Positions 17,904-31,687 of a stretch of 64,000 bases of DNA are shown here, piece by piece. Within the stretch, counting starts at the first letter, position 1. Each line of letters opens with the position of its first letter. A program made the position numbers and the translations under genes. Origin of the DNA: a phage. The notes under the pieces are model-generated. The model had not been told where the DNA came from, did not search any database, and was given only the letters and a program-made list of their open reading frames with translations. The stretch lies in the sequence record PX393110.1. One strand, 5' to 3'.

Positions 17904-19541
17904 TTAGATGAGGGTCTGTAGGAACCACTCGGGCACTTGTCCCTTAAGGTTATCCAGCAGTCTCTGGAAGGATGGGTCCATCATGTAGGTTACTGCGAAA
18001 TCGTCATGGCTACGTACAGCACGACCACTACCCTGGATGATGGCTATCATAGGCTGGATATTATACCACTCCGGATCACGCACTTTCTTGCGCTCTACCC
18101 AGAGATCACCCAGGTTAGGATAGGAGATCTTGAAGAATACCTGGAATCTGGCAAGATCGCCATGTAAGTCCACGCCCTCCAGAATAGACGGAGACACGAT
18201 AATGCGACCAGGAGTCATCAGCTTAGTGATGTCTCGCACTTCCCTAGAGGTGGGAATGTACATACGGTCGGCATACTTACTTAACTTCTTGATCTCCTCA
18301 GCATTAGCATACGATGCAGAGTGAACCAGTCCGCAAGCAGTGTCATCTCCCAGTCCCTCCAGGAAGTTATCCAGAGCTTCTACATATTCCGGGAACACAT
18401 CCGCCTTAGTCTTGAAGTTCATGCTAGGAAGAGAACGTTCCACAATAAACGGACGATTCTCCAGAGGCCATGCATAATCAGTAGTGATTACTTCCGTATC
18501 ATCCATGCTCAGTTTCAGATCATAGATAAGATTAAACGGAGTAGCAGTCATCAGCAGACGATACTCTGGATGCATAATCAAGCTAGCTGAAGAGTCCAGT
18601 ACTTCCAGTGGCTTGAACTTAAACATCAGATCTCGCTCACCAGTATCTTCGTACAGTACCCACTGATCTGGATCCGTAGCGATGATTGTATTAATCCCGG
18701 ACACGGTCTCTGAAGCCAGGCTAGCTCGAGATTCCAGAGGTCCCAGTTTACTCGCGATCAGCGACTCTACCTGAGCCTTGTTACCGATAGCATCGAACTT
18801 CTCGATAGCCTTCTCCAGATCACGAATCTGAGCGTATAGAACAGATTTAGCCTGGGTAAGATATGGTAGCAGGTCGAAGATGTAGTTGATCTTGAAGTGC
18901 TTAGTCCTCTGAATCTCAGCAACCGGAATGTAATCCCCCATGTCGAATTCTGGAGTTAGGTCCATAAGACGACTGATGTTGATAGTAACTTCGGAGCGAT
19001 CAATAAGAGATCCTGGCAGAGTATGGGCTTCGTCCGCCACCAGCAGTCCTTCTGCAGTGTACTTACCATCCGCAGTAAAGAAGAATGCATAGTTAAGGTT
19101 CTTAAGTGGTGAATCTTTCCACGCATTACGAGCTGCCGCATACTCACAGCACCCGTCCGTCTTACGATAGCGACAGGTAGGGTGATGTTTCTTCTTCGGA
19201 GGAATGGGCAGAGTCAGGTCTGTGTGGCAGCTATAGTTCGTAGCACCCATCAACTGCTTCATATCCTTAAAGTCGCGAAGATACTGCTGCTGGAGAGCAA
19301 TCGTCTTGGTAATGAATAGAGAATCGGTCTCGAACAGCTGATTAATTACTTCGGCTACGATTCGAGAGATCCACGATTTACCAGCACCGGTAGGAGCATT
19401 CAGCAGCACCGTCTTCTTATTCTTATTAATGAACGCATCCAGAATCTTGATGATAGTTTCGCGCTGATTAGCTCGATAGCTAAAGTCCGGGAACGTCTCC
19501 TCCACTACGCTATCGAGGATTCCTTCGACATCATATTGCAT
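17904..19541 (-). CDS. DEAH-type helicase (SF2-like)
   Basis: Walker A LLNAPTGAGKSWIS; DEAH box LLVADEAHTL. Confidence 0.6.
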   Translation of the reverse strand: MQYDVEGILDSVVEETFPDFSYRANQRETIIKILDAFINKNKKTVLLNAPTGAGKSWISRIVAEVINQLFETDSLFITKTIALQQQYLRDFKDMKQLMGATNYSCHTDLTLPIPPKKKHHPTCRYRKTDGCCEYAAARNAWKDSPLKNLNYAFFFTADGKYTAEGLLVADEAHTLPGSLIDRSEVTINISRLMDLTPEFDMGDYIPVAEIQRTKHFKINYIFDLLPYLTQAKSVLYAQIRDLEKAIEKFDAIGNKAQVESLIASKLGPLESRASLASETVSGINTIIATDPDQWVLYEDTGERDLMFKFKPLEVLDSSASLIMHPEYRLLMTATPFNLIYDLKLSMDDTEVITTDYAWPLENRPFIVERSLPSMNFKTKADVFPEYVEALDNFLEGLGDDTACGLVHSASYANAEEIKKLSKYADRMYIPTSREVRDITKLMTPGRIIVSPSILEGVDLHGDLARFQVFFKISYPNLGDLWVERKKVRDPEWYNIQPMIAIIQGSGRAVRSHDDFAVTYMMDPSFQRLLDNLKGQVPEWFLQTLI

Positions 19542-20497
19542 ATTAAGTTCTCTCTTCTGTCTAATACGGACTGGATGAACTCATCAGTACCATTCTGCAG
19601 TTTCCGTATTAGTAATTCCTCAGGATCCTCACCATCGCTGTAGACTACTCGCAGTTGACGAATACTCTTCACCTTCTGTCTTACGCTATTGCGCAGTTCA
19701 AAAGATAAATCCGTACTGTCAAGAAATATCTGACCTTCTTCCGGGAAGAACTGACTCATCATCCTGGCCTGGGTATCGGTGAGGAAAGATCCCTGGACAG
19801 CTAATGGGTTATCGTAGCCTAACAGCAACATTGCGAAAGCATCAAACATACCCTCGCATAAGCTGAACTTAGTCATACCTCCGTATAGACTAGTCTTCAG
19901 AGCACGATTCGGACTATAGATATACTTATCCCCAGGAGGAATATGGTATTTCCTTTTACCTATCGGCTCGTACAGACGCATCGTATAAGATATGATCTTA
20001 CCCTTAAAATACATCGGAGCTGCCACACCTACTCCCTTAAGTTCGCGGATCTGGAAATAATCTTCCATACCCTGTAGGAGCGGGTTGCGGTTAGCCAAAT
20101 ACTCTTTACAGAAATCAGAAGGAGGATCAAACATCCTCTCATACTGAATCTCTGGCACCGAAGATAAACTCCGGACTACCTGCTTATCAGAATGAGCTAT
20201 CCACCCACGGATAGTTAGCTCTAATTCTAACTCTTCCTTACTCTTATTCGAGAAAGGTATGAACTTACAATGGCAACGATGGCATATTCCAGTCTGCTTA
20301 TTGTAGTTCCAGTAAAATGTCCACTTAGAGTTCGGTTCCCCCATAAGTTCACAGGTGGGACACAGTCGGAGCTCCTCCCCCTTATGTTCGTTAGCTATCT
20401 GGACATTACCAGGATACTTATCTGCTTCGAACATGTAAACTCTGGGAGTAACCCTAACCAAGTATTCATTTATACGAGTTAGAGACTCAATTTCCAT
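19505..20497 (-). CDS. DNA primase (zinc-ribbon plus TOPRIM)
   Basis: CPTCE...CHRCHC zinc ribbon; TOPRIM-like LCEGMFDAF. Confidence 0.6.
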   Translation of the reverse strand: MEIESLTRINEYLVRVTPRVYMFEADKYPGNVQIANEHKGEELRLCPTCELMGEPNSKWTFYWNYNKQTGICHRCHCKFIPFSNKSKEELELELTIRGWIAHSDKQVVRSLSSVPEIQYERMFDPPSDFCKEYLANRNPLLQGMEDYFQIRELKGVGVAAPMYFKGKIISYTMRLYEPIGKRKYHIPPGDKYIYSPNRALKTSLYGGMTKFSLCEGMFDAFAMLLLGYDNPLAVQGSFLTDTQARMMSQFFPEEGQIFLDSTDLSFELRNSVRQKVKSIRQLRVVYSDGEDPEELLIRKLQNGTDEFIQSVLDRRENLICNMMSKESSIA

Positions 20498-20813
20498 AGA
20501 CTAAACTCTGACCCGCATGGATGCGTACTGCATGGTTCTTGTTAGAGTTAGTCAGACGAATCCACTTACCTTCGTCTGTAGAGAATACCTGAGCAGTTAA
20601 GCCCAGGTAAGATACAGAAAGATTAGAGATAGAGTCGACAGTTACCGTACTATCTACCGGAAACTCTACCGATGAGCCAGCTCCAACAATGTAGCCACTC
20701 TTACGCAGCTTCATTGGAGCAATACGACTACTGTGCTGATCGTCAGCACCAATTGTCCGAGCGAACGAGCTCTCAACGTAAACAGTTTCAGGAATATTAA
20801 TCTGCATTGCCAA
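20487..20813 (-). CDS. hypothetical protein
   Basis: 108 aa ORF. Confidence 0.3.
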   Translation of the reverse strand: MAMQINIPETVYVESSFARTIGADDQHSSRIAPMKLRKSGYIVGAGSSVEFPVDSTVTVDSISNLSVSYLGLTAQVFSTDEGKWIRLTNSNKNHAVRIHAGQSLVYGN

Positions 20814-21396
20814 TAGTCTCTTTAACCAGGTGCTCTATTGAACTACCATGTGCCATATGGAGAAGAGACTGGAGAGTACCCATCCATACATCATCACTCA
20901 CTTCGTCTTTGTACTTATTGAAGCAGGTACTGAAGATGTTGCGGCAGTTCTCCAGCTCGCTTTCGCCAAAGAAGATGTTACCCATGCTGAACTCAGTCAT
21001 GATCTCACGAGATACCGCAATAGCATCTGCAACTTTACAGATGAACTTAGCTTCGGCAGATGCAGGAGTGCGGAAAGTAGGAAGTACCTCTTCCCAGATT
21101 TCCTGCTCAACTTTATTCAGAGTCTCTTTTAACTCTGGGAAGCGAGCCTTAGCAGTGTAGGGGACATCACCTGTAAAGATCTCTGGAATGTCGTGAACCA
21201 ACGAGTACTGATTTACTTCCAGACCCTGCTCAGCAGTTAAAAATCCATCCATCACCAGTTTCTGAACAATCAGAGTAGAGTAGTAAGTAACTTCGAAGCT
21301 ATGCTCCGAGATAGTAGAGCGATGAGACAGTACTTGCTTACCTGCGAAACGATTCACGTTATTGGTACACACTGGTACCTTAAAAAGATCTTTCAT
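20797..21396 (-). CDS. HD-domain phosphohydrolase, YfbR-like 5'-deoxynucleotidase (putative)
   Basis: H...HD...D pattern: EHSFEVTYYS ... LVHDIPEIFTGDVP. Confidence 0.55.
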   Translation of the reverse strand: MKDLFKVPVCTNNVNRFAGKQVLSHRSTISEHSFEVTYYSTLIVQKLVMDGFLTAEQGLEVNQYSLVHDIPEIFTGDVPYTAKARFPELKETLNKVEQEIWEEVLPTFRTPASAEAKFICKVADAIAVSREIMTEFSMGNIFFGESELENCRNIFSTCFNKYKDEVSDDVWMGTLQSLLHMAHGSSIEHLVKETIGNAD

Positions 21397-21448
21397 GTAA
21401 TTTCTCCTAAGTTACAAAAATAAAGGTATGGAAGTTGCCTCCCACACC

Positions 21449-21479
21449 TTAACAGCCTTTCGAGCCCTAAAAAGAGCGG
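21449..21479 (-). promoter_or_regulatory. class-1 conserved motif, copy 3
   Basis: TTAACAGCCTTTCGAGCCCTAAAAAGAGCGG. Confidence 0.45.
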
Positions 21480-22553
21480 TTATTCCAGAATAAACGGAGA
21501 CTTATCCCCGAGGCGGTTCGCGACCCATTTCACGAATGGTGAATTAACCAGATGCTCGCACTGGATAGACATGTGAGCTCCAGTAGTCTTACATAGATAA
21601 TGAGCGCCTGCTAACCACATCATCACATCCAGAGTTGATCCTGGTTGGAACTCTCGACCAACATCTTCCATTACGTATTCTAGAATACTGTGATCGCTAT
21701 TATAACGAGAAGCAGCATCTTCAAGAGTAGCGATGTAATGCTGGAAGTAGGTACGGATCTTATACCAGGAATTAAGTGATCCGAGATCAATCGTAGTTAC
21801 CGGAGCTTCATTAATGTCGTCAACATAAGCTCGGATATTACTTACCTGCTTCTTGATGTTCGACACTTCCGGATACCAGTGGAGATCATCCGTCATCACC
21901 ACATAGTTGCCCATATCTACTTTGAGCATAGTTGCGATGATTTCCTGGATGATCGTGAACTCCACCAGATTAACGTTAGTCAATCCCCAGATTAGATCAT
22001 TACTACGGTTGAATACCGTGCAGTCCAGACCACCATTACGGTACTTAAACGATAGAGCAATGTTGCAGATCATATCTGCGGTATTGATGCTGCCAATGCT
22101 GTTTACCAGACCTACATCAGAATCACGGCTGGGATCGTGAATAGTAGCCACGCACTTACGGTTACCCAGGTCAGAACGGAGGCGGTCTGTTACAGTCTGG
22201 AGTTGATCGTAGTTATACAGACGCTCACCGTAAGCACCACGCCAGGTAACCATATCATCGCTAAACATCTTAGCGCGAGGAACCATAATCGACATCCAGT
22301 TATCGATTGCATAGCCACCAGACAGTACCCACAATACTTCCCCCATAATTCCGAGGATATTGTCTTTACGTTCTGGATGAGCCATCCAACGATTAATCGG
22401 ATTACTTAACTCAACTACAGCATGACCGATGGATACTACCGCCGAAGAGTTAACAGAAGTTCTGGACTTCTGCAACTCACCAGCCTTATCCATAGTATTG
22501 ATGCTGTTAACCAGGATTTCAGTATTACTGTTACCGCGAATTACCGAGATCAT
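21480..22553 (-). CDS. thymidylate synthase-family enzyme (ThyA homolog; possible pyrimidine C5 hydroxymethyltransferase)
   Basis: ILGIMGEVLWVLSGG (cf. ELLWFLxGxTN), WRGAYGERLY (cf. PVYGxQWR), ADMICNIALSFKY (catalytic Cys region, cf. ALPPCH..QFYV), LDCTVFNRSNDLIWGLTNVNLVEF (cf. LSCQLYQRSxDxxLGxPFNIASYALL). Confidence 0.6.
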   Translation of the reverse strand: MISVIRGNSNTEILVNSINTMDKAGELQKSRTSVNSSAVVSIGHAVVELSNPINRWMAHPERKDNILGIMGEVLWVLSGGYAIDNWMSIMVPRAKMFSDDMVTWRGAYGERLYNYDQLQTVTDRLRSDLGNRKCVATIHDPSRDSDVGLVNSIGSINTADMICNIALSFKYRNGGLDCTVFNRSNDLIWGLTNVNLVEFTIIQEIIATMLKVDMGNYVVMTDDLHWYPEVSNIKKQVSNIRAYVDDINEAPVTTIDLGSLNSWYKIRTYFQHYIATLEDAASRYNSDHSILEYVMEDVGREFQPGSTLDVMMWLAGAHYLCKTTGAHMSIQCEHLVNSPFVKWVANRLGDKSPFILE

Positions 22554-23272
22554 TTAGAGTCCTTACGCACTGAATCAATAGACTTAACTGCAGAGGACAG
22601 TAACTCCAGACGGGCCTCCTGAGGGATCATACCAGATGGCTCGTTCAGGATCATAATACCTTTACCAGTATTAGTAAAACGAGCTGTGATTGATCCAGGA
22701 TACACCGGATGATTCAGAGTTACAGAATTACACAACGCAGCACCGAATCGCTCCTCGTAGGCACGCATAGTTACCTTAAGGAGAGTAGAACTGACTGCTA
22801 CAGAGTATTCAGGATCAACAACACGGAAGTTATTGTCCTCAATACTCTTATCCTTCGTATTGAAGAACAGAGTCATGTTATAATAATCAATAGACTCGTT
22901 ACTGAGACGTAATGCCTCATCACGAGCTTCCTGGCTGGCAAACATACTGTTATGCAGCAGGAAGTAAACGTACGAATCGAATACCGCACGATCACTGACG
23001 ATCAACTCGCCACGATTGTAGGCATCCTTGAACATCTGAGTTCGCTGACGAATAAGACGCAGCTGGAACTCTACCGCTTCCATAGGATCTTCTACAGCTA
23101 AGCGCAGAATATCCATATGGGATGTTACTCCCAGAGGAAGATGGTCACGAGTCTGTACTGCACGGAAGGTACATTCGGTTGATTCTTCCCAACCTTTAGC
23201 CAGGGTAGATTTACCGGTACCCTGCGCACCAGACATAATTACACTGTAGCCTGGGATACTATAGTCTCTCAT
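22550..23272 (-). CDS. P-loop nucleotide/nucleoside kinase
   Basis: Walker A MSGAQGTGKSTLA; start refined to MRDYS (ATG at 23272) with GGAGAGAA upstream. Confidence 0.55.
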   Translation of the reverse strand: MRDYSIPGYSVIMSGAQGTGKSTLAKGWEESTECTFRAVQTRDHLPLGVTSHMDILRLAVEDPMEAVEFQLRLIRQRTQMFKDAYNRGELIVSDRAVFDSYVYFLLHNSMFASQEARDEALRLSNESIDYYNMTLFFNTKDKSIEDNNFRVVDPEYSVAVSSTLLKVTMRAYEERFGAALCNSVTLNHPVYPGSITARFTNTGKGIMILNEPSGMIPQEARLELLSSAVKSIDSVRKDSK

Positions 23273-23304
23273 TATTCTCTCCAATTAAGAATCTTTCCCA
23301 CATT

Positions 23305-23335
23305 TTAACAGCCTTTCAAGACCCTAAAAGAGCGG
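23305..23335 (-). promoter_or_regulatory. class-1 conserved motif, copy 4
   Basis: TTAACAGCCTTTCAAGACCCTAAAAGAGCGG. Confidence 0.45.
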
Positions 23336-23361
23336 ACTAAAAAGGCTGGTGTAAATGTGAA

Positions 23362-24333
23362 CTAGCTAAACTTATACCAGCGAGGTCTCATACGGATCTC
23401 GTGATTCAGTTTATGTAGTTTCGAGAATTCGCAGAATGAGTTGGTGAACATCTGGCGAGTATAGAATCGCTCATCCTCTGGCATGAAGTGGAACCATTTC
23501 TCCGGTTCCCATGAATACCCGAAATGTGCACATATCTCTTTGATGTTCTGATACCACCATTCCACGAATACCTGATAACCACAGGGAGGATTCTGGTCAT
23601 TAATCATGTACCATACCCCATCCTGAGTCCCAGGTCCACATACGATAGCGTCATTATCTGTATACGCAGTCTCTTTAGAGTAGGACATAGTTGCCCAGCA
23701 TTGATATGCCATGAACGGACCTAATCCAGATACCTGTAACAGATGCTCGATAGCCTCGGTAGCGAACGGAGACTTCCATGCCCATAAGATAGGATCACTG
23801 TAGGTCTTCACCAGATAGGCTCTGGCAGCTACACTGTACTTAATATCCTCTGGACATACTTCATTAGCCATCTTAACTGCTGTGCTAAGGAAGTAGGCAT
23901 TTGATTGCTGTGGAGCGGTGAACGGAGGACCATCCTCATAACGACGTAGCTCTTCGCGACCCATGTTATGTATGTCGTCATAGCTCATCTCATAAAGAGG
24001 AAGGACTCTGCGGAAGCGATCCATATATGAATCACCACGGTTTATCATCTGGAAGAGTACTACATTAAGTGCTTTACTCTCCCAGCTTAAAGAATCGTTC
24101 TCCAGAATGTTCTTAATAGCCCACACTGTTTCACGATCGTGCTTACGGAACACGTTAGTGAATTTGAACTTACTAATCCACTTATGTTCCGTCCACGGAG
24201 GAGGCAGCTTAAGCACCTCCTTCTTATAATAAACCTCTGTACGTTCACGGTTATACTCCACATACTCCCGTAACTCCTCAGGATTTATCATCCCAAGGAG
24301 TCCTTCGTAATGCAGACCTAACGGTGTTGACAT
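23362..24333 (-). CDS. hypothetical protein (323 aa), translationally coupled to upstream GT
   Basis: start ATG overlaps upstream stop (TAATG at 24331-24335); Trp/aromatic-rich, no recognisable motif. Confidence 0.45.
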   Translation of the reverse strand: MSTPLGLHYEGLLGMINPEELREYVEYNRERTEVYYKKEVLKLPPPWTEHKWISKFKFTNVFRKHDRETVWAIKNILENDSLSWESKALNVVLFQMINRGDSYMDRFRRVLPLYEMSYDDIHNMGREELRRYEDGPPFTAPQQSNAYFLSTAVKMANEVCPEDIKYSVAARAYLVKTYSDPILWAWKSPFATEAIEHLLQVSGLGPFMAYQCWATMSYSKETAYTDNDAIVCGPGTQDGVWYMINDQNPPCGYQVFVEWWYQNIKEICAHFGYSWEPEKWFHFMPEDERFYTRQMFTNSFCEFSKLHKLNHEIRMRPRWYKFS

Positions 24334-25412
24334 TAAAGAATACCTTCTTTGGTAAAGTAGTCGATTACTTCATCCTGAAGTTCTTGTGCGTAATCCTTGC
24401 GCAGATACAGATTCTCATACTGATGTTTCAGCAGAGCATCACGATCTTTCAGTTTCTCTGCAATCTCCGCATTACTGGAGACGATCAGAGGAGCCAGCAG
24501 CTCTTCGGGGACGCCGCTCCGGATTATTGTTCCGGCAGCATCTTTATCCACCAACATCAGAGTACCAGAGCTCAGGTATTCATAATAACGGTTAGGTGGG
24601 CTGGTATAGAACGAGTTACTAGAGTTCCAGTCTTCAATAAGCAGTACCGCTGCGTATTTAGCCACTTCATCCAGCATCTCTGACAGCTTAAACTTAGGCA
24701 GCCAGTTAATAGGAGCAGCAGGCCCCAGCCACTTACGTTCTTTAGGATCCAGCTCTTCCCAGTTTTCCTGCTCGTAGCCGTCAAATCCAGCAAGACCACC
24801 AGTATGTTTAGCGATAGACATCTGAGCTTTGTAGCTAGGCACCGACATAAACAGTTCCAGACCATCCTGCTGGGAGAAGTACTGAGTGAACTTATGGAAG
24901 CGACCTTCACGAGCAGCACCGTAATACAGCAGGCTATTGTCTGGTTTATCAGATGAGCCGTAGCGAGGCTTACGACCAGGAACGTAGGTAAGACGGTTCC
25001 AGTTAATGTGGTGATAGTTCTCTTCGCTAGGGGAGTACTGATTACCCCAGGAAGTACGCTCGAATGCTGCTACTACTTTAAATGTCGTAGCTGCTGTGAT
25101 GTGTCGCCACTGCGGACCCTGGATACGCATACGTGATGAATAATCTTGACCAATCCAGTAAAACTTAGCTCCGAGGTCCGCCTGGTCTACCCAGAATTTA
25201 TACATCTCATCGCGGAACTTACAGAAGGTAGGAACACCATTGACGGCGATGATCACGTCATATTTGGTGCCATCTTCCATAGCCTTAACAAACTTAGGAG
25301 TATCATCCAGCAAGTCCGCCTGAAGTCCGTAGGCTAACCAGGATGCCAGAGTGTTACTGGCGATGATGGATTTATCGCTGCATGGCGAAAAGTTAGTTAC
25401 TGCAATTTTCAT
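24333..25412 (-). CDS. GT-B fold glycosyltransferase, phage DNA beta-glucosyltransferase-like (putative)
   Basis: MKIAVTNF... N-terminus, LLYYGAAREGRFHKFTQYFSQQDG and NRYYEYLSSGTLMLVD segments resemble T4 beta-glucosyltransferase as recalled from memory; not searched. Confidence 0.4.
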   Translation of the reverse strand: MKIAVTNFSPCSDKSIIASNTLASWLAYGLQADLLDDTPKFVKAMEDGTKYDVIIAVNGVPTFCKFRDEMYKFWVDQADLGAKFYWIGQDYSSRMRIQGPQWRHITAATTFKVVAAFERTSWGNQYSPSEENYHHINWNRLTYVPGRKPRYGSSDKPDNSLLYYGAAREGRFHKFTQYFSQQDGLELFMSVPSYKAQMSIAKHTGGLAGFDGYEQENWEELDPKERKWLGPAAPINWLPKFKLSEMLDEVAKYAAVLLIEDWNSSNSFYTSPPNRYYEYLSSGTLMLVDKDAAGTIIRSGVPEELLAPLIVSSNAEIAEKLKDRDALLKHQYENLYLRKDYAQELQDEVIDYFTKEGIL

Positions 25413-25440
25413 ATTTAATTTCTCCGTAGGCTGTCACAAT

Positions 25441-25470
25441 GTAACAGCCTTTTAGCTCATCAAAGAAGCG
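25441..25470 (-). promoter_or_regulatory. class-1 conserved motif, copy 5 (variant)
   Basis: GTAACAGCCTTTTAGCTCATCAAAGAAGCG. Confidence 0.35.
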
Positions 25471-26494
25471 AATTAGCTGATGCCCAACTCAGCCACTTAT
25501 CATTGAGATCAGTTAAGTAGGAATAGTCTTTGTTTAATCCGAATACCGTACGGTTAGTTCCATCGAACTTCATTACCCCAGCACCAGGAGCTCGGATAAT
25601 TGCATCTTCGGTAGCCGTACAATACTCTTTCAAGTATTCCTGGATGTTGGGACGAATACGACGGAACGAGCTATCTGCAGAGTCATAGTGGAACATATCT
25701 GCACAATGCCACTGTACGTAGGACTTATCTGGACGGCTAAGCAGCTCATTACGAGTTACCATATCTTTCGGAGAGTAGCCTAGCTTAGCTACGGTGACTT
25801 CGTGAATACCACCGCCATTAGAAGAGGTGTCCATTAACCAGTTCTCATCCCAGTAGAACGAGCTACCAGTACCGGTTACCTGGCCCACTTTCCATCCCAT
25901 CGCCATACCTTTAAACAACAGGTAGCAATCCTCACCTACAGTGAGTTGCTGGAAGGTCTTATCGAACAGCCAGAACATCTTCTCGCTAGTCTTGACCATA
26001 ATACCCAGGTCAGTAGCCGGAGCAGTGTTATTATGGGACTGACGATCGCAGAGTTCAACAATCTTGTAGTTACGGTTCTTGAAGCTACGGACGAACGCCA
26101 TCTCAAACTCAGATCCCTCGAAGTCGATAATGGACCGATCCAGATGGAAGATATCGTCGGCGAACCAGACATCATCATCCACGAAGTAGCAGATGTCTGG
26201 GCACCAGTCCTGCTTCTCCATTACAATCCATGCTTTATCCAGAGCATGGGCACGGATTTCTCCGATTACCGGATTTTCGTACTTAGGGCTATGACAGAAA
26301 TTAAATTGCTCATCCCCACCAAACTGCTCTTCCAGAATTGCCTTATCTTCTTCGGAGGCATCCTGAATAAAGTAGAAGAAGCGATACTCAATAGAGTCGT
26401 CAGTCTTTTTAGCATCTTTGAACGACTGAATCTGACGGAGTACCGACTTCAGACGATGATAGGTTGGGATGATAAAAGCTACTTTGGTGGTCAT
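25460..26494 (-). CDS. family-2-like (GT-A fold) glycosyltransferase
   Basis: VAFIIPTYHR N-terminus and DxD motif YFVDDDVWF. Confidence 0.5.
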   Translation of the reverse strand: MTTKVAFIIPTYHRLKSVLRQIQSFKDAKKTDDSIEYRFFYFIQDASEEDKAILEEQFGGDEQFNFCHSPKYENPVIGEIRAHALDKAWIVMEKQDWCPDICYFVDDDVWFADDIFHLDRSIIDFEGSEFEMAFVRSFKNRNYKIVELCDRQSHNNTAPATDLGIMVKTSEKMFWLFDKTFQQLTVGEDCYLLFKGMAMGWKVGQVTGTGSSFYWDENWLMDTSSNGGGIHEVTVAKLGYSPKDMVTRNELLSRPDKSYVQWHCADMFHYDSADSSFRRIRPNIQEYLKEYCTATEDAIIRAPGAGVMKFDGTNRTVFGLNKDYSYLTDLNDKWLSWASANSLL

Positions 26495-26500
26495 AATTAT

Positions 26501-27112
26501 TTATCCAATTTGACGAACTAAGCGAAACCCTTCGGCGTACGGCCACTGGGCGGAATATCCACGTAAGGTGGCTAGGGCTAAGATACTCTGGGTATCTCGG
26601 TCTGACTTAATCTGGGAGTCGAATCGTCCCATAGCCTGGCACTTACACTCAATATCGTCCTTATTCAGACGCTCGAAGTAATTAGGTTCCATCTGACCGA
26701 ACTGGGTCAGGGACTCGGCATACTCATATTCCAGGATAAGCCAGTTATACGCTCGGAGAGCTACACGAGCAGCATGATTAACTAGTTGATGGTCCTGGTG
26801 TAGGCTACTGAACGGAATATAGACTACATCCGGCCTGATTTTAGCAACATAGTCCGCAATATCCTTAGCCAATTGCGGAATATCCTTCTGAGTCATACCA
26901 TCGCCTGTGGAGGCATCGTTACGCTCCAGGCAATGTACTTCTTTGATATTCGGATAGACACCGAATGCTGCTTCGGCTTCGCCACGACGGGTCTCGTCCG
27001 GAGCAGTTACTTCGAGGATGAAGAATTGGTCATCGCGGAATTTGCTCATAATACCTCCGCAACCCAGAATCTCATCATCGTGATGTGGGCTGATAATCAG
27101 TCGTGACTTCAT
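26501..27112 (-). CDS. PIG-L/LmbE-family N-acetylglucosaminyl deacetylase
   Basis: LIISPHHDDEILGCGG (family hallmark AHPDDE) and second His-rich motif SSLHQDHQLVNH. Confidence 0.6.
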   Translation of the reverse strand: MKSRLIISPHHDDEILGCGGIMSKFRDDQFFILEVTAPDETRRGEAEAAFGVYPNIKEVHCLERNDASTGDGMTQKDIPQLAKDIADYVAKIRPDVVYIPFSSLHQDHQLVNHAARVALRAYNWLILEYEYAESLTQFGQMEPNYFERLNKDDIECKCQAMGRFDSQIKSDRDTQSILALATLRGYSAQWPYAEGFRLVRQIG

Positions 27113-27127
27113 TATTAATCCTCGCTA

Positions 27128-27163
27128 CACAAAAATGGGGTTAGGCCGTAGAGACCTAACCCC
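27128..27163 (-). terminator. intrinsic terminator-like hairpin
   Basis: minus-strand RNA: GGGGUUAGG-loop-CCUAACCCC followed by AUUUUUGUG; sits between class-1 copy 6 and the LmbE start. Confidence 0.45.
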
Positions 27164-27179
27164 GTACGCCTCTGACACC

Positions 27180-27210
27180 TTAACAGCCTTTTAGGTCATC
27201 AAACAGGCGG
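27180..27210 (-). promoter_or_regulatory. class-1 conserved motif, copy 6
   Basis: TTAACAGCCTTTTAGGTCATCAAACAGGCGG; overlaps the 3' end of the transporter gene. Confidence 0.4.
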
Positions 27211-28581
27211 AGTTTCCTTAGCCAAGAATACTTTAGGTACAAAGATCTTGAGGAACCCGAATAGAATACACAATACCCCAATCAGTACCGGAACAGCCGA
27301 TACAGCTACCAGAGTCTTCGTTACAGTTACTACGTCGCCACCTGCCCAGTTAAGTGCAGCAGCAACTACACCCATGCTTACAATCCAGAATACACGAGTT
27401 CTAGGAGCGGTCATGGACTCTACCGTAATACCTGCTGAGTCATGACCTGTAATAAAGAACAGGATCACAGACACGAGGGTAATTACCGAGAATATCCATC
27501 CGCCTGGGAAATTAGCCAGAAGCTGGAAGATATCCTGAGCACCATGTTGTAGACCAGCTACACCGAATACGGTAAACCAGACGTTACTGATGATGGTAGG
27601 GAACAGTACACATCCGAGGATCAGTTCGCGAATAGTACGGCCGTAAGAGATACGTGCCACAAACGCTCCGACGAATAATGCCCAACCTACCCAGGCTGCA
27701 TAGTAAGCATAAGGCCAGCTAGCCAGCCATTGCTTCTCTTCAGCAGTACTGCCGATGTTTACTGACATAGGAATAATCTGGAGCAGATAGCTACCAGAAT
27801 AGGTGATGGTCTTCCAGAGGTATTCGAAGAATGTACCACTTACAGCAACGAATGCCATAATAGATAGAGCTACGATTACATTATATCTGGATAACCACTT
27901 AACCCCACGATCGACACCAGTTACGGCACTAAGTACAGTACCCAGAGTCAGGAGCGCGATAATGGTGTAAGGACCAACATCCACTCCCAGGAACTCTTTA
28001 AATCCGGAACTGATCGGGCCTACTGCGTAGACGAACGACAGGGTTAAGCCTATGATGGTAGAGAAGAGTAAGCTTATCGTATTAAGGTTATTCAGAGCTC
28101 GGGACTTGAATAACTGATTAAGCGGACGGTCTTCACCACGTACATGCAGTAAGTACCCGAATGCCACCCCTACGACTGCATAAACTGCCCATGCGTTAAG
28201 TCCCCAGTCAAAGAAGGTAGTTACCATATTCTGACGTTCGGACATACCCTCCTGCTGATGGTACATAGGTTCGAGTACACCATAATAAATCATGGATACA
28301 CCCATACCGGTACTAAACATCATGGAGTAATAGGTAAAGCGATTATATTTCGGAGCACCTTTACCCAGCTTAATGTTACCATGCTTGCTGAATACAAAGA
28401 ATGCCAGGAACGCTAGGAAGATCAGCGAAGACCAGGTAAATATGAATCCATACTGAGATATGAATACAGACTTACTCCAGTCCATTACAGCACCAAACTG
28501 GGTGGGAGCTAACATAATGGCGAGTATGATACCCACCGTTACTAGCACCGTCCCCCAGGTAACTACCTTTGAATCTGACAT
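27199..28581 (-). CDS. BCCT-family (betaine/carnitine/choline-type) secondary transporter
   Basis: multi-TM protein; FSKHGNIKLGKGAPKYNRFTYYSMMFSTGMGVSMIYYGVLEP (cf. FSRYGNIRLG...WFAMLFxAGMGIGLxFxGVxEP) and VGAFVARISYGRTIREL (cf. GMFLARISRGRTIREF). Confidence 0.7.
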   Translation of the reverse strand: MSDSKVVTWGTVLVTVGIILAIMLAPTQFGAVMDWSKSVFISQYGFIFTWSSLIFLAFLAFFVFSKHGNIKLGKGAPKYNRFTYYSMMFSTGMGVSMIYYGVLEPMYHQQEGMSERQNMVTTFFDWGLNAWAVYAVVGVAFGYLLHVRGEDRPLNQLFKSRALNNLNTISLLFSTIIGLTLSFVYAVGPISSGFKEFLGVDVGPYTIIALLTLGTVLSAVTGVDRGVKWLSRYNVIVALSIMAFVAVSGTFFEYLWKTITYSGSYLLQIIPMSVNIGSTAEEKQWLASWPYAYYAAWVGWALFVGAFVARISYGRTIRELILGCVLFPTIISNVWFTVFGVAGLQHGAQDIFQLLANFPGGWIFSVITLVSVILFFITGHDSAGITVESMTAPRTRVFWIVSMGVVAAALNWAGGDVVTVTKTLVAVSAVPVLIGVLCILFGFLKIFVPKVFLAKETPPV

Positions 28582-28584
28582 TGA

Positions 28585-29493
28585 TTATTCCTCAATTACG
28601 CCCTTAGCGATTAACTGGCGACGGACGTATGCGTAGCCAGCAGGTGAAGTAGCGAGGACGATGTCCGCACTACGGAAGTTGGTTTCGATATAGAAGCACT
28701 CCTGAAGATCCCGCGTACAGAAGAGCTCAGTGCTCATCATACCCTCGCGTACGTTACATGCGTCTGCAACGAATTGCGCAACATCTTCGAAGTGGTCTAC
28801 CGAATGACTATAGCCGAATCCACGGGCATCAGTAGATATAACGTAGTTATGGCAGTACGGAGTGAAGTCAGTATCTTCGTAGGATTTACCCTGGATAGTG
28901 AAAATATCTGCATAATCCTTGAACCCGCTCGGGCTAACCAGAAGATCCCAGGCAACTACCATACCGTCGATAACATCTGCTTGAAGTACCAGAGAAGTAG
29001 TATATTCGTCCGGCGCCTTATCACAGACCAAAATTGGGGAGTCCCCCAGAAGGTCCGACATAGTGCCTGCACCCTTGCCCCCGTGAACACGATCACGGCG
29101 TACAAACGCCTCCTGAGGCTTCTGGTACAGTCTAAACGACGGTACAATCAGCGAATCAGGCATAGTTCCCAGATTAGCTTCGGAGCGAAGGCAGGATAAT
29201 TGGTCAGCTTTAGACCACGTACTTTCGATAGCGTGCAGATCGTTACCGATTTTGGTATAGATGTAGCTTTCCGGATTGCGGTACTTACCCTGATTCAGCT
29301 CTTCGATAACCGAGTCGAAATAAGGAAGTCGTACTGATCCCTCACGAGGAGCAGTTAACGCTACTGAACCATGCTTGGTATGATCCTGATCAACTACCAT
29401 AACCTGGTCCAGACTTACACCCATCTTAAGAATCTGGGATAGTGTAGCTGCTGTGTGGTTAGTGCAGCCAATCATCAAATCTAACTTCTTCAT
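28585..29493 (-). CDS. hypothetical enzyme, possibly ATP-grasp-like ligase
   Basis: glycine-rich HGGKGAG and C-terminal FYIETNFRSAD resembling the ATP-grasp E-x-N-x-R motif; weak. Confidence 0.3.
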   Translation of the reverse strand: MKKLDLMIGCTNHTAATLSQILKMGVSLDQVMVVDQDHTKHGSVALTAPREGSVRLPYFDSVIEELNQGKYRNPESYIYTKIGNDLHAIESTWSKADQLSCLRSEANLGTMPDSLIVPSFRLYQKPQEAFVRRDRVHGGKGAGTMSDLLGDSPILVCDKAPDEYTTSLVLQADVIDGMVVAWDLLVSPSGFKDYADIFTIQGKSYEDTDFTPYCHNYVISTDARGFGYSHSVDHFEDVAQFVADACNVREGMMSTELFCTRDLQECFYIETNFRSADIVLATSPAGYAYVRRQLIAKGVIEE

Positions 29494-29520
29494 TTTAATT
29501 CCTCAGTTAACTTGTACAAC

Positions 29521-29550
29521 CTAACAGCCTTTCGAACCCTAAAAAGAGCG
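29521..29550 (-). promoter_or_regulatory. class-1 conserved motif, copy 7 (variant)
   Basis: CTAACAGCCTTTCGAACCCTAAAAAGAGCG; about 27 nt upstream of ATG with GAGGA in between. Confidence 0.4.
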
Positions 29551-29594
29551 AAATAATAGATATCTAGCCACCTCGTAAGATGGCTATGTATATA

Positions 29595-30335
29595 TTACTT
29601 TAATTCGGAGAGATCTGCTATCTTCACCTTAGCTGTTACATCCCAGATTCCTTCACCAAATCCGGTATCTTCCAGCAGCTTAGGCACTTCACGTTTCTGT
29701 ACCTTAGACTGCTCGTACTTAAGCAGAGGAATATTACCGGTCTTATCCGATTGATCCCACAGATAAGTAGCAGCACCAATGTTATCGAACAGTGCGAGAT
29801 CTGGATTAAACTGGGTAAGGAGTCGGCAGTCCCAGTGAGATTTATGTTCCTCGAAAGGATTAGTCTCCGTACCACGCTGACGATACTCGTAGTTAGGAGT
29901 ACCGATCACGATTTTAGCCTTAGACTGGAATAGCTTAGACAACACCATAAGCCCATCTTCGCTATCCAGATGCTCCAACACATCTAGCCAGATAATAGTG
30001 CCGAATTTATCCAGCTCTTCAATAGGAAGATCTTTCAGCAGTTCAACGATATTGCAGATGTAGATATCGCTATATACATTTACACTGCCTTTGATGTAGT
30101 CTTCGCAGATGTCCAGACCTGTGATCTGACCTTCGAATCCTGCGTTACGGAGAGCTAGACCGATCTCTCCACGACCTAATCCCATATCCAGGATTGGCCC
30201 GGAGATAATTTCGTTACGGAGCATCCATTGGAGAAAGTGCTTCTGGACTAAGTAGGAGGTACCTCCGTTGCCCAGTGAAGCCTTCGTGACCTTAGTACCA
30301 GGAACGAAGTTACACTCGATATGTTTACCAAACAT
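29595..30335 (-). CDS. class I SAM-dependent methyltransferase (small-molecule type)
   Basis: motif I ILDMGLGRGEIG; post-I acidic GLDICEDY; TIIWLDVLEHL. Confidence 0.55.
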   Translation of the reverse strand: MFGKHIECNFVPGTKVTKASLGNGGTSYLVQKHFLQWMLRNEIISGPILDMGLGRGEIGLALRNAGFEGQITGLDICEDYIKGSVNVYSDIYICNIVELLKDLPIEELDKFGTIIWLDVLEHLDSEDGLMVLSKLFQSKAKIVIGTPNYEYRQRGTETNPFEEHKSHWDCRLLTQFNPDLALFDNIGAATYLWDQSDKTGNIPLLKYEQSKVQKREVPKLLEDTGFGEGIWDVTAKVKIADLSELK

Positions 30336-30439: not shown

Positions 30440-31687
30440 TTACAGTTTACCGATCATCTTCTGAATCATCTCATCAGAAGTCTGATTCTCTACCTTAGCA
30501 CGACGCTCTTGCAGATTAGCAATGCGGTCGTCGTGATCTTTCTTACGCAACATGCTAATGCTACGGCTAAGGCAGGAATTCAACACTTCCTGGGTAATAC
30601 CGAGAGCTTTGATGATCTGAGCATCAGACTTATCCTGCATAACCAGCTCGCCCACTTTAGGAAGAATCTGGTAAATCTCGATGTCTCGGTCAATCTTCTT
30701 AAGCGACTCAGTCTTATGGACGGAGAATGCCTGATTGTAGAGAGCCATCGTGACTGCAATCCAGTCGCGAATACCCATCGTCACCAATTGGCCATTATAA
30801 GCTACCTGGATACGATGCGAGCGGTTCATGTAAGCAATATTCATGCATGCTTCGTGAACCTCGTCCATATCGATGGTTCTGATACGTGGAGCCTTCATTA
30901 CTCGGATATAGATCTTATCCTTGGACATGTTCTTGACCAGGATCTTACCTTCGGACAGCCACTTATTCAGGAAGCCGATGCGAGGAGTAATCACCTCACC
31001 AGACCCGATGATGTCGATGGTATCGGTATTGACACGAGTCACCTTAAGGCTAAGACCGAGGCGACCTACACCAGTTTCCCACAGCTGCTTAAGGTCAGAC
31101 TTAGCAGGCACGATATCGTAACCGTACTGAGCCTTAAGCAGATTGTAGTCATCATGCTCATAAGCATCCAGCAGTGACTCATAGGTGAACGCTGGAATAC
31201 GAGACTGAATCCCCGTAGCCCATGAGAAGGTACCGTACATCAGAGCATACGGAATCGGCACCGGAAGGTACGCATATTCCATCTTCTCTTCACCTTCCAC
31301 CTGCGGAACATAGTCCGCTAAGCCGAAGTAGTACTCTGCACGATCTTCGTTCAGGCCAACCTTCGTGTAACGAGGAGCCGCACCAGGTACTTCTTCCAAC
31401 AGTTTCACACCGAAGGAACCCTGACCATCAATAGCTCCGATACGAGCCAGACGAGAGATAGTTCCATCGATAGACTGGTCGCCGAATGGGTGGAGCGACT
31501 GAGTCTCGGAGATAGCACTCAGAGTCCCAACCAGCTTCCCGCGAGCAATGCTATTCAGCGCCATGTAGATACGACGCTGAGCAGGAATCAGGCCATCGAT
31601 ACCAGGAACTACACGATGAAGAGCACAGTACACACTGTAGTCAGTGTAGTTCTTGGTGATGAATTCAGAAATCTTTACCTGTTCCAT
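30440..31687 (-). CDS. type II DNA topoisomerase, DNA-cleavage subunit (GyrA/gp52-like)
   Basis: IDGLIPAQRRIYMAL matches the GyrA-type RDGLKPVQRRILY segment. Confidence 0.6.
   Translation of the reverse strand: MEQVKISEFITKNYTDYSVYCALHRVVPGIDGLIPAQRRIYMALNSIARGKLVGTLSAISETQSLHPFGDQSIDGTISRLARIGAIDGQGSFGVKLLEEVPGAAPRYTKVGLNEDRAEYYFGLADYVPQVEGEEKMEYAYLPVPIPYALMYGTFSWATGIQSRIPAFTYESLLDAYEHDDYNLLKAQYGYDIVPAKSDLKQLWETGVGRLGLSLKVTRVNTDTIDIIGSGEVITPRIGFLNKWLSEGKILVKNMSKDKIYIRVMKAPRIRTIDMDEVHEACMNIAYMNRSHRIQVAYNGQLVTMGIRDWIAVTMALYNQAFSVHKTESLKKIDRDIEIYQILPKVGELVMQDKSDAQIIKALGITQEVLNSCLSRSISMLRKKDHDDRIANLQERRAKVENQTSDEMIQKMIGKL

Follow-up and report, generated by a model that had tools for sequence, protein, structure and literature searches.

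A candidate thymidine hypermodification island in phage PX393110.1 couples glycosyltransferase genes with a conserved ligase-like gene and transporter gene pair

The phage sequence record PX393110.1, of which a stretch of 64,000 nt (hereafter the window) was examined by computational means throughout, carries between its primase and topoisomerase genes an island of ten genes. In our assessment, this island fairly probably directs a thymidine hypermodification in two layers, namely an O-glycosylated 5-hydroxymethyldeoxyuridine (5-hmdU) that is possibly acylated with an imported betaine-like acid. The strongest evidence in this analysis is comparative genomics, which reveals two conserved modules (a kinase-ThyA-HD backbone, and a ligase-like gene together with a transporter gene), with the remainder of the island varying among relatives. 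The initial annotation, made from the letters of the window, had proposed an island for a glycosylated, possibly amino-sugar-containing and further derivatised hydroxymethyl-pyrimidine; all the computational tests run here agree with that proposal and point to a 5-hmdU-type base.

The island consists of ten minus-strand open reading frames (ORFs) at positions 20797-30335, flanked by the genes of primase (19505-20497) and topoisomerase II subunit A (30440-31687); the ten co-oriented genes first described between these two flanks were all recovered at their positions. Its neighbours function in replication and recombination, including PolA, a Rad3-like helicase, primase, topoisomerase II subunits B and A, a fused Mre11/Rad50-like protein and a 5'-3' exonuclease. 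The island region shows 96.5% identity to that of Escherichia phage vB_EcoM_IME392 (hereafter IME392; 116 kb, classified only as an unclassified Caudoviricetes member) and 94.5% to that of phage EP_H11, and nearly all the island genes are labelled 'hypothetical' in these two GenBank records. IME392 is moreover annotated with a dCTP deaminase, a dUTPase and RNA polymerase beta/beta' homologs in split form. Curated profiles back six assignments in the island: a YfbR-like HD protein, a ThyA-family enzyme, a P-loop kinase, a PIG-L (LmbE-family) deacetylase, a BCCT transporter and, weakly, a class I methyltransferase; all six had been named in the initial annotation, and the first five were thereby borne out. 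For the proteins of 359, 344 and 302 amino acids (aa), direct sequence searches of Pfam, PHROGs, NCBIfam and PDB gave nothing usable. These three are near-ORFans: 5.8 billion proteins include just 2-4 close homologs of each, and 50,697 phage records contain none beyond IME392 and EP_H11.

The two modules became apparent from the relatives of the island. In the metagenomic relative L011 (Logan SRR21194222; 63-75% identical), the whole island is kept in order, with a different content in the methyltransferase slot. L021 (Logan SRR34064821; 31% identity in the 302-aa family) has the arrangement FolD ... 303aa-BCCT-PIG-L, followed by topoisomerase and then kinase-ThyA-HD-primase, and L022 (Logan SRR30869050, 1-14536; 29%) reads kinase-ThyA-HD-primase-295aa-BCCT-364aa-GT4-cupin-cytidylyltransferase-305aa-ADDT-inositol-1-P synthase-140aa-HMUD2-HMUDK_hel. 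The ADDT-like, HMUD2-like, HMUDK_hel and inositol-1-phosphate synthase genes of L022 are also common to Ralstonia phage RP13. Two short contigs complete the set: L010 (36-37%), where the gene of the 302-aa family is followed by a BCCT gene, and L023 (Logan SRR14039628, 204-1785), which encodes the most divergent member of the family (24%), followed by a transporter of the aromatic-acid/H+-symporter type of the major facilitator superfamily (MFS). The gene of the 302-aa family thus adjoins a BCCT gene in five contexts (the window, L011, L010, L021 and L022) and an MFS gene in the sixth; given this MFS neighbour, the ligase-like gene keeps a transporter beside it even across transporter superfamilies. 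The backbone is likewise stable, since the order kinase-ThyA-HD-primase is kept in the window, L011, L021, L022 and Acinetobacter phage Ab1-TPeters, the last of which (31% identity in PolA) reads kinase-ThyA-HD-primase-helicase-PolA with no tailoring genes between. As a separate observation, the topoisomerase II A subunit of L021 (9312-11708) is split by an intein with an HNH endonuclease domain.

The prediction of a thymidine modification in these phages is not new, because it has already appeared in print. The Delarue group placed IME392 and EP_H11 among the 'SP15-like/RP13-like' phages and predicted their T-modification from the polymerase subfamily, aGPT-Pplase, ThyA, dCTP deaminase and dUTPase; both papers are silent on the beta-glucosyltransferase-like, GT-A glycosyltransferase, PIG-L, BCCT, ligase-like and methyltransferase genes (PMC12686479; bioRxiv 10.1101/2025.03.26.645540), and it is this tailoring module that is new here. 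A full-text literature search found no paper tying BCCT or any other transporter to phage DNA hypermodification. Our own search with the PolA protein (1099 aa) agrees with the published placement, with 31% identical residues over 90% of the protein for RP13 and over 97% for Ab1-TPeters, as well as weaker matches to SP-15, YerA41, phiLo and LIS04, while Pfam detects the polymerase domain only. The SP15-like PolA subfamily is described as exceeding 900 aa and having an N-terminal domain like uracil-DNA glycosylase, and two of its phages, SP-15 and YerA41, contain sugar-hypermodified T (PMC12686479; PMC9023294).

Within the backbone, the ThyA-family enzyme (357 aa; 21480..22553) was identified by Pfam (E 4.7e-12) and by the PHROG thymidylate synthase profile (7e-71). 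It shows 40% identity (E 3e-57) to the thyA homolog of phage ViI, Vi01_060c, and no significant similarity to the dCMP hydroxymethylase gp42 of T4; overall, its identity is 36-40% to the ViI enzyme compared with 21% to E. coli ThyA. A five-way alignment showed that the catalytic Cys163 is conserved and that an Asn occupies the column of E. coli N177 and T4 D179; furthermore, a C-terminal extension of ~110 aa continues past the thymidylate synthase fold. Because the enzyme is ViI-like, lacks similarity to gp42 and has Asn in the specificity column, uracil rather than cytosine is the favoured base, and the protein is predicted to be a dUMP hydroxymethylase making 5-hmdUMP. In ViI, the modified nucleoside 5-NeOmdU is made from 5-hmdU (PMC5889632). 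The hydroxymethyl-pyrimidine route foreseen in the initial annotation is therefore supported, and of its two versions the T-even one through hydroxymethyl-dC was rejected, on the Asn in place of Asp and the missing gp42 similarity, in favour of the uracil/thymidine one.

The P-loop kinase (244 aa; 22550..23284) matches AAA_28 (E 2e-9) and the PHROG thymidylate kinase profile (1e-11). Its stop codon overlaps the start of ThyA, and its gene directly precedes that of ThyA in each of the four relatives examined (L011, L021, L022 and Ab1-TPeters). A role as 5-hmdU DNA kinase was considered and rejected, as the protein has no similarity to ViI gp67 or gp243. Being unlike the DNA kinases, overlapping ThyA and always preceding it, the protein is therefore read as a putative 5-hmdUMP kinase, that is, a deoxynucleoside monophosphate (dNMP) kinase. 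The third member is a YfbR-like 5'-deoxynucleotidase of the HD-domain type (199 aa; 20797..21396), which was recognised by Pfam YfbR-like (E 1.7e-14) and HD_3, matches the PHROG 'dATP triphosphohydrolase' (6e-19) and contains an HD..E motif (VHDIPE). Its gene follows ThyA in the window and in the same four relatives, and its product would remove dTMP or another competing dNMP.

Taken at face value, these three proteins might also be an ordinary thymidylate synthase, a dTMP kinase and a housekeeping HD protein, with the rest of the island being auxiliary metabolic genes and the DNA carrying no modification at all. The GenBank label of ThyA ('thymidylate synthase') and the existence of complete genome assemblies are in line with such a reading. 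However, we consider it very improbable, since it would leave the HMUDK_hel protein and the beta-glucosyltransferase homolog described below without a substrate. In addition, the similarity of ThyA to the ViI enzyme far exceeds that to E. coli ThyA, T-modified genomes go together with this PolA lineage (PMC12686479), and the module is conserved across 24-37% protein identity.

The next gene (23362..24333) encodes a protein of 323 aa that had initially been listed as unknown. This label no longer holds: the protein belongs to the Pfam family HMUDK_hel (PF18723, E 4.8e-35), also named aGPT-Pplase clade 1, and shows homology to ViI gp160 (E 7e-28) and 33% identity to RP13 ORF120. By synteny and accession, gp160 (Vi01_130c) corresponds to the 'aG/PT-PPlase1' of Lee et al. 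2018. No Walker A motif is present in the sequence of the 323-aa protein. Its start codon overlaps the stop codon of the GT-B glycosyltransferase gene by 1 nt, and a single promoter motif precedes both genes. The clade 1 family, to which a fold resembling that of DNA glycosylases is ascribed, marks phages that hypermodify thymidine (PMC5889632), and its clade 2 paralog is an amino-acid:DNA transferase (PMC8989533). In phage SP10, a kinase and the clade 1 domain make up one fused protein (gp186; PMC5889632, Table 3), and in L022 the HMUDK_hel gene follows that of the HMUD2 DNA kinase instead of a GT-B gene. On account of the GT-B coupling here, the HMUD2 neighbour in L022 and the kinase fusion in SP10, HMUDK_hel may be an exchangeable 5-hmdU-recognition partner of whichever enzyme derivatises the hydroxymethyl oxygen. 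The 323-aa protein was also considered as an amino-acid:DNA transferase, which was rejected for lack of similarity to ViI gp247.

The canonical ViI route is represented by gp67 (HMUDK_HMUD1, PF18748), gp243 (HMUD2, PF18747) and gp247 (ADDT, PF18724). These three proteins, together with the HMUD2-like and ADDT-like proteins of L022, were used as phmmer queries against ORFs of at least 50 aa (E<=1). Neither a 5-hmdU DNA kinase nor an amino-acid:DNA transferase (PF18724) was matched in the window, the whole IME392 genome or L011, and HMUDK_hel was the only member of the canonical set that turned up in them. As positive controls, the HMUD2-like and ADDT-like genes were recovered in both RP13 and L022. 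The enzyme set is thus unlike the known pathways, as the initial annotation had remarked: these two canonical enzymes are missing from the sequences searched, and the tailoring module is new. For RP13 itself (L004 20341-21597, 9870-11642), we noted that ORF133 matches HMUD2 (E 1.4e-13; 51 bits, cutoff 25) and that ORF118 is ADDT-like; the former contrasts with the 2025 preprint, in which no 5-HMUDK was detectable in RP13.

These results bear on an alternative in which a split 5-hmdU DNA kinase would be made up of the P-loop kinase and HMUDK_hel; the hydroxyl of imported choline, or a sugar, would then displace the phosphorylated hydroxymethyl group, with glycosylation coming later. The P-loop and HMUDK_hel genes are adjacent, the Pfam title of PF18723 is 'helical domain of 5-hmdU DNA kinase' and SP10 gp186 is a kinase fusion (PMC5889632); moreover, O-serinyl-T in ViI offers an analogy, the aromatic box of the BCCT transporter suits choline-like cations, and phosphate occurs in the modifications of SP-15, YerA41 and Carin-5 (PMC12686479). 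On the other hand, the P-loop protein is unlike both characterised DNA kinase families, is translationally coupled to ThyA rather than to HMUDK_hel across all five relatives and occurs in L022 alongside a separate HMUD2 kinase, and no transferase of the AADT (amino-acid:DNA transferase) family that could carry out the displacement was found in the window, IME392 or L011. We therefore judge a phosphorylated intermediate to be improbable.

In place of a DNA kinase, the gene coupled to HMUDK_hel encodes a GT-B enzyme of 359 aa (24333..25412) that resembles T4 beta-glucosyltransferase (beta-GT). Aligned by hhalign with a six-member beta-GT alignment, the profile of its family gave a Prob of 93% and an E of 3.4e-7 over 282 columns, spanning both proteins, compared with Prob values of 0.2% and 0.07% for unrelated alignments used as negative controls; the likeness to phage DNA glucosyltransferases claimed at the outset was thereby substantiated. 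The beta-GT invariant positions T4 D100, G188, R191, G193, R269 and E272 are matched in the 359-aa protein, whose D90, R168, R275 and E278 align to T4 D100 (catalytic) and R191, R269 and E272 (UDP-binding). The pairwise BLASTP match to T4 beta-GT is marginal (E 0.008), and the protein has 2 homologs among the 5.8 billion proteins and no Pfam match. On this profile-level and residue-level likeness, it is predicted to be a DNA 5-hmdU O-glycosyltransferase.

A second, probable glycosyltransferase of the GT-A type (344 aa; 25460..26494) carries the motifs IIPTYHR and VDDD in its N-terminal part. Its AlphaFold2 (AF2) model has a predicted local distance difference test (pLDDT) score of 46 and is confident only in the N-terminal ~108 residues (beta-alpha-beta, pLDDT 60-85), ending at VDDD. 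The top Foldseek matches of the model are GT-A enzymes (PcManGT, K4CP, GnT-I, GtrB, TarP and TarS), although weak ones (E 1e-3 to 3e-2, TM about 0.26). Hence, the GT-A call made in the initial annotation is partly borne out, by the N-terminal half, the remainder of the model being of low confidence; Pfam gives no match. The protein may add a second sugar. The poor AF2 models of this protein and of the 302-aa protein are attributable to the shallow alignments obtained from few homologs.

The following gene (26501..27112) encodes a PIG-L/LmbE-family deacetylase of 203 aa, for which the Pfam PIG-L match is above cutoff (E 6.7e-14); the protein contains PHHDDE and HQDH motifs and also matches NCBIfam BshB1 below cutoff (E 1.3e-5). 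Its gene follows BCCT in the window, L011 and L021, and the enzyme would deacetylate an N-acetylhexosamine to the hexosamine. At the far end of the island, a protein of 246 aa (29595..30335) is a probable class I S-adenosylmethionine (SAM)-dependent methyltransferase of the small-molecule type. The methyltransferase proposed earlier is supported in so far as four class I families match (Methyltransf_25/23/31/11), with the reservation that all these matches are sub-threshold (best E 4e-5); NCBIfam UbiG gave E 1.2e-5. The gene is not present in L011, where other tailoring genes occupy its slot, and is probably a strain-variable tailoring gene. That slot (L011 1956-5860) contains a paralog of the 344-aa GT-A, a DXD glycosyltransferase, a phosphatidylserine-decarboxylase-like protein, a weak ATP-grasp_3 protein and a CxxCxxCC protein, which points to an adduct that is larger and of another kind; an exchange of this sort would be in keeping with a tailoring pathway. 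A 260-aa protein of L011 was tried as a homologous replacement of the methyltransferase and rejected, being not homologous.

The transporter of the second module (460 aa; 27199..28581) is a clear BCCT family member (Pfam BCCT, E 4.3e-92), and its best PDB relative is BetP (E 2.6e-48, aligned end to end). Of what we take to be the equivalents of the BetP aromatic (Trp) box, which accommodates a trimethylammonium group, five of six are kept (W189, W194, Y197, W374 and W377), and W373 is replaced by Ala. Among NCBIfam models, the one for glycine betaine BCCT scores best, at 243 bits, far under its 650-bit cutoff. These data suggest that the protein is an importer of a quaternary-ammonium compound. 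Most BCCT matches in GenBank records labelled as phage appear to be bacterial contamination (280-390 kb 'Staphylococcus phage' contigs and the multi-contig 'Acinetobacter phage MD-2021a'), and beyond IME392 and EP_H11 the sole candidate that we judged likely to lie in a real phage genome is a weak match in Vibrio phage 1.031.O, which has a related PolA.

The 302-aa ligase-like protein (28585..29493) forms a two-gene unit with BCCT. An exhaustive HMMER search brought its family to nine members, and a scan of IMG/VR found no relative. Residues R132, G138, K140, E256, E270, R274 and D277 are invariant in the family, and N272 is present in eight of the nine; the resulting pattern, F-x-R-x5-G-x-K ... 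E256 ... E270-x-N-x-R-x2-D, resembles the phosphate loop and Mg site of ATP-grasp enzymes. Although the AF2 model is poor (pLDDT 39), its top Foldseek matches are mostly ATP-grasp ligases (RizA, YwfE, CPS, LysX, Ddl, PsnB and RimK; E 7e-3 to 0.3). An ATP-grasp fold is thus plausible for this protein. The weak ATP-grasp_3 protein of L011 (286 aa) was considered as its paralog and rejected, as the two were not related by test.

We also examined the transcriptional layout of the island. The window has 19 copies of the exact 11-mer AAAGGCTGTTA, each of them intergenic and on the minus strand, against 0.01 expected; this motif is embedded within a longer conserved stretch, roughly CGCTCTTTTTAGGGYTCGAAAGGCTGTTAAGGTG. 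One copy lies upstream of HD (21450..21460); others in or beside the island are at 23306, 25442, 27181, 29522, 30363, 17866 and 33713, and further minus-strand sites in the window include 3658, 14265, 39158 and 44365 ... 50245. The motif stands directly upstream of the HD, P-loop, GT-B, PIG-L, 302-aa and methyltransferase genes, which agrees with the earlier remark that recurring motifs precede most island genes, and the remaining four island genes are the second genes of two-gene units. The motif-defined units are [MTase], [302-BCCT], [PIG-L-GT-A], [GT-B-HMUDK_hel], [kinase-ThyA] and [HD-108aa-primase-helicase], where MTase denotes the methyltransferase and 108aa a conserved minus-strand ORF of 108 aa (20487..20813) that overlaps the HD gene end and the primase start, has an L011 homolog (E 1.5e-37) and gave no family match in Pfam, PHROG or NCBIfam. 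The motif is common to the island genes and the adjacent replication genes. It probably serves as an early or middle promoter in this phage, which has split RNA polymerase beta/beta' homologs of its own; the island shows no enrichment in sigma-70-like promoters (16 against 18 expected). Upstream of PIG-L and HD (27137-27191 and 21423-21460, minus strand), the motif is followed by a strong terminator-like hairpin with a T-run and then the start codon; upstream of the methyltransferase and 302-aa genes, the hairpin comes before the motif, in the usual terminator-then-promoter order.

Several observations weigh against a glycosylated and acylated 5-hmdU as the product of the island. The sequence of ThyA, taken alone, is also compatible with a plain thymidylate synthase; the beta-GT match is remote (21% identity); and the GT-A and ATP-grasp assignments depend on low-confidence models (pLDDT 46 and 39) and motifs. 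As for the latter, the name 'ATP-grasp-like' given in the initial annotation has weak backing from Foldseek and motif, but a profile search against PDB, a Pfam scan of the nine members and hhalign against E. coli DdlB and RimK were all negative for the 302-aa family. L021 and L022 keep the ligase-transporter pair without the 359-aa and 344-aa genes, L022 also without PIG-L; therefore, the pair does not strictly need the glycan of this phage. The minimal ViI and M6 lysate reconstitutions worked without aGPT-Pplase clade 1 (PMC8989533). Assembled sequences are at hand for IME392, EP_H11 and the metagenomic relatives alike, whereas YerA41, RP13 and Carin-5 resisted sequencing (PMC12686479), so any modification here would be less obstructive. 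Finally, PIG-L deacetylases with glycosyltransferases are also present in mycobacteriophages and Arthrobacter phages. In such phages, these genes serve the glycosylation of virion proteins.

The last point raises the question of whether the functions of the island are split, with kinase-ThyA-HD making 5-hmdU or a simple derivative, and GT-A, PIG-L, BCCT, the 302-aa protein and the methyltransferase acting on virion proteins, the host envelope or the small-molecule pool (for example, on compatible solutes that keep the infected cell productive). Such a division would accommodate the Mycobacterium and Arthrobacter phage genes as well as the persistence of the 302-BCCT pair in L021 and L022 in the absence of both glycosyltransferases; furthermore, BCCT transporters are importers of osmoprotectants, and DNA as the acceptor is itself deduced. 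Nevertheless, these genes belong to the early replication array, promoter motif included, rather than to the structural module, and the pair of L022 is situated between ThyA-HD-primase and ADDT/HMUD2/HMUDK_hel. Moreover, the GT-B is specifically beta-GT-like and coupled to HMUDK_hel, and the persistence of the ligase-transporter pairing when the transporter superfamily changes is better explained by a substrate being supplied than by general osmoprotection. Taken together, we regard a split function as unlikely.

Returning to DNA hypermodification in two layers, the domain identities, synteny, conservation and absence of HMUDK and AADT observed here led us to the following scheme. Its substrates, step order and DNA acceptor are inferred, and the imported compound most of all. 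In the first, homology-supported layer, the ThyA homolog would convert dUMP, coming from the dCTP deaminase and dUTPase that the phage carries elsewhere in its genome, to 5-hydroxymethyl-dUMP; the coupled P-loop kinase would phosphorylate this product towards the triphosphate, the YfbR-like HD nucleotidase would deplete the competing dTMP, and the SP15/RP13-type PolA would incorporate 5-hmdU instead of T. In the second layer, HMUDK_hel, coupled to the GT-B enzyme, would recognise 5-hmdU in DNA, and GT-B would transfer a sugar onto its 5-CH2OH group, giving a base-J-like O-glycoside with no kinase/transferase route. The GT-A enzyme could then add a second sugar, and the PIG-L enzyme could remove an N-acetyl group, thereby exposing an amine that the 302-aa ligase might acylate with a carboxylate imported by BCCT, for which a glycine-betaine-like acid is our best guess; the small-molecule-type methyltransferase would give a strain-specific finish. 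The most specific form of this proposal, in which a phage-encoded importer brings in a glycine-betaine-like quaternary-ammonium carboxylate (or other organic acids in the MFS relatives) and the 302-aa enzyme fixes it on an amino sugar or other amine of 5-hydroxymethyluracil, is offered tentatively, as a possible but doubtful one.

The predicted pathway shares features with several known systems. As in ViI, M6, SP10, PhiW-14 and PaMx11 (Lee et al. 2018, 2021), there is a ThyA homolog, a nearby dNMP-type kinase, a clade 1/HMUDK_hel protein and a modification that would be finished after replication. In contrast to these phages, however, this phage has no genes of PF18748, PF18747 or PF18724 (whole-genome search of IME392) and is without a pyridoxal phosphate (PLP)-dependent decarboxylase or radical SAM enzyme, having instead the beta-GT-like GT-B, GT-A, PIG-L, BCCT, ligase-like and methyltransferase genes. 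With the T-even phages (T4 gp42, gp1 and the alpha-/beta-glucosyltransferases) it would share the logic of a ThyA-family hydroxymethylase, a dNMP kinase and then post-replicative O-glycosylation by GT-B, and the 359-aa protein, remotely homologous to T4 beta-GT, keeps the catalytic Asp and the UDP-binding Arg/Glu residues. The hydroxymethylase differs, though, in having Asn instead of Asp and no sequence relation to gp42; the presence of dCTP deaminase and dUTPase also indicates a U-derived base, unlike that of the T-even phages, and additional amino-sugar and ligase steps are predicted here.

A further comparison is with SP-15, YerA41, Carin-5 and RP13, phages with oligosaccharide-hypermodified thymidine, which share ThyA, dCTP deaminase, dUTPase and probably the PolA subfamily with this phage, the HMUDK_hel homolog being common with RP13. 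Compared with them, the genome is much smaller (about 111-116 kb) and assembled in the standard way; RP13 has HMUD2-like, ADDT-like and inositol-1-phosphate synthase genes, none of which was found in the window phage by our searches, and the BCCT/302/PIG-L module has not been described for any of these four. The predicted first product, with an O-linked sugar on the 5-hydroxymethyl group of DNA uracil, would be chemically analogous to base J (beta-D-glucosyl-hydroxymethyluracil) of kinetoplastids. However, the 5-hmU of base J is made within DNA by JBP dioxygenases and then glucosylated by another enzyme, JGT, whereas here it would arise in the nucleotide pool, be glycosylated by a T4 beta-GT relative and undergo further tailoring. 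The same order of enzyme types, from a GT-B through a PIG-L/LmbE deacetylase (recalling the weak BshB1 match) to an ATP-dependent ligase-like protein, is known from mycothiol and bacillithiol synthesis, where the GT-B is a GlcNAc transferase and the ligase works on the amine set free by the deacetylase. This is an analogy only, since the GT-B here is beta-GT-like rather than MshA/BshA-like, the ligase belongs to a different family and the presumed acceptor is DNA. Apart from these comparisons, among the neighbouring genes, a 921-aa protein (34385-37150, minus strand) has a calcineurin-like phosphoesterase (Mre11-type) N-terminus as well as SMC/Rad50 ATPase and zinc-hook matches, and would appear to be Mre11 and Rad50 fused into one chain.

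Which restriction, CRISPR and glycosylase defences a phage evades is determined by its DNA hypermodifications; they are also a source of new DNA-modifying enzymes and hamper genome sequencing. If the scheme proposed here is true, the thymidine pathways would be extended by a direct O-glycosylation of 5-hmdU without kinase and transferase steps, so that a relative of T4 beta-GT would produce an O-glycosyl-hmU in a phage, and HMUDK_hel would be an exchangeable partner of kinases or glycosyltransferases. The doubtful betaine-like version, if true, would mean a permanently cationic, glycosylated thymine replacement in DNA, as well as the first transporter dedicated to DNA base modification. For aGPT-Pplase clade 1, a testable role is offered, and the E. 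coli host together with two close isolates (IME392 and EP_H11) makes the prediction testable. Overall, given the conserved ligase-transporter module, the DNA chemistry of these phages could depend on a compound from the environment.

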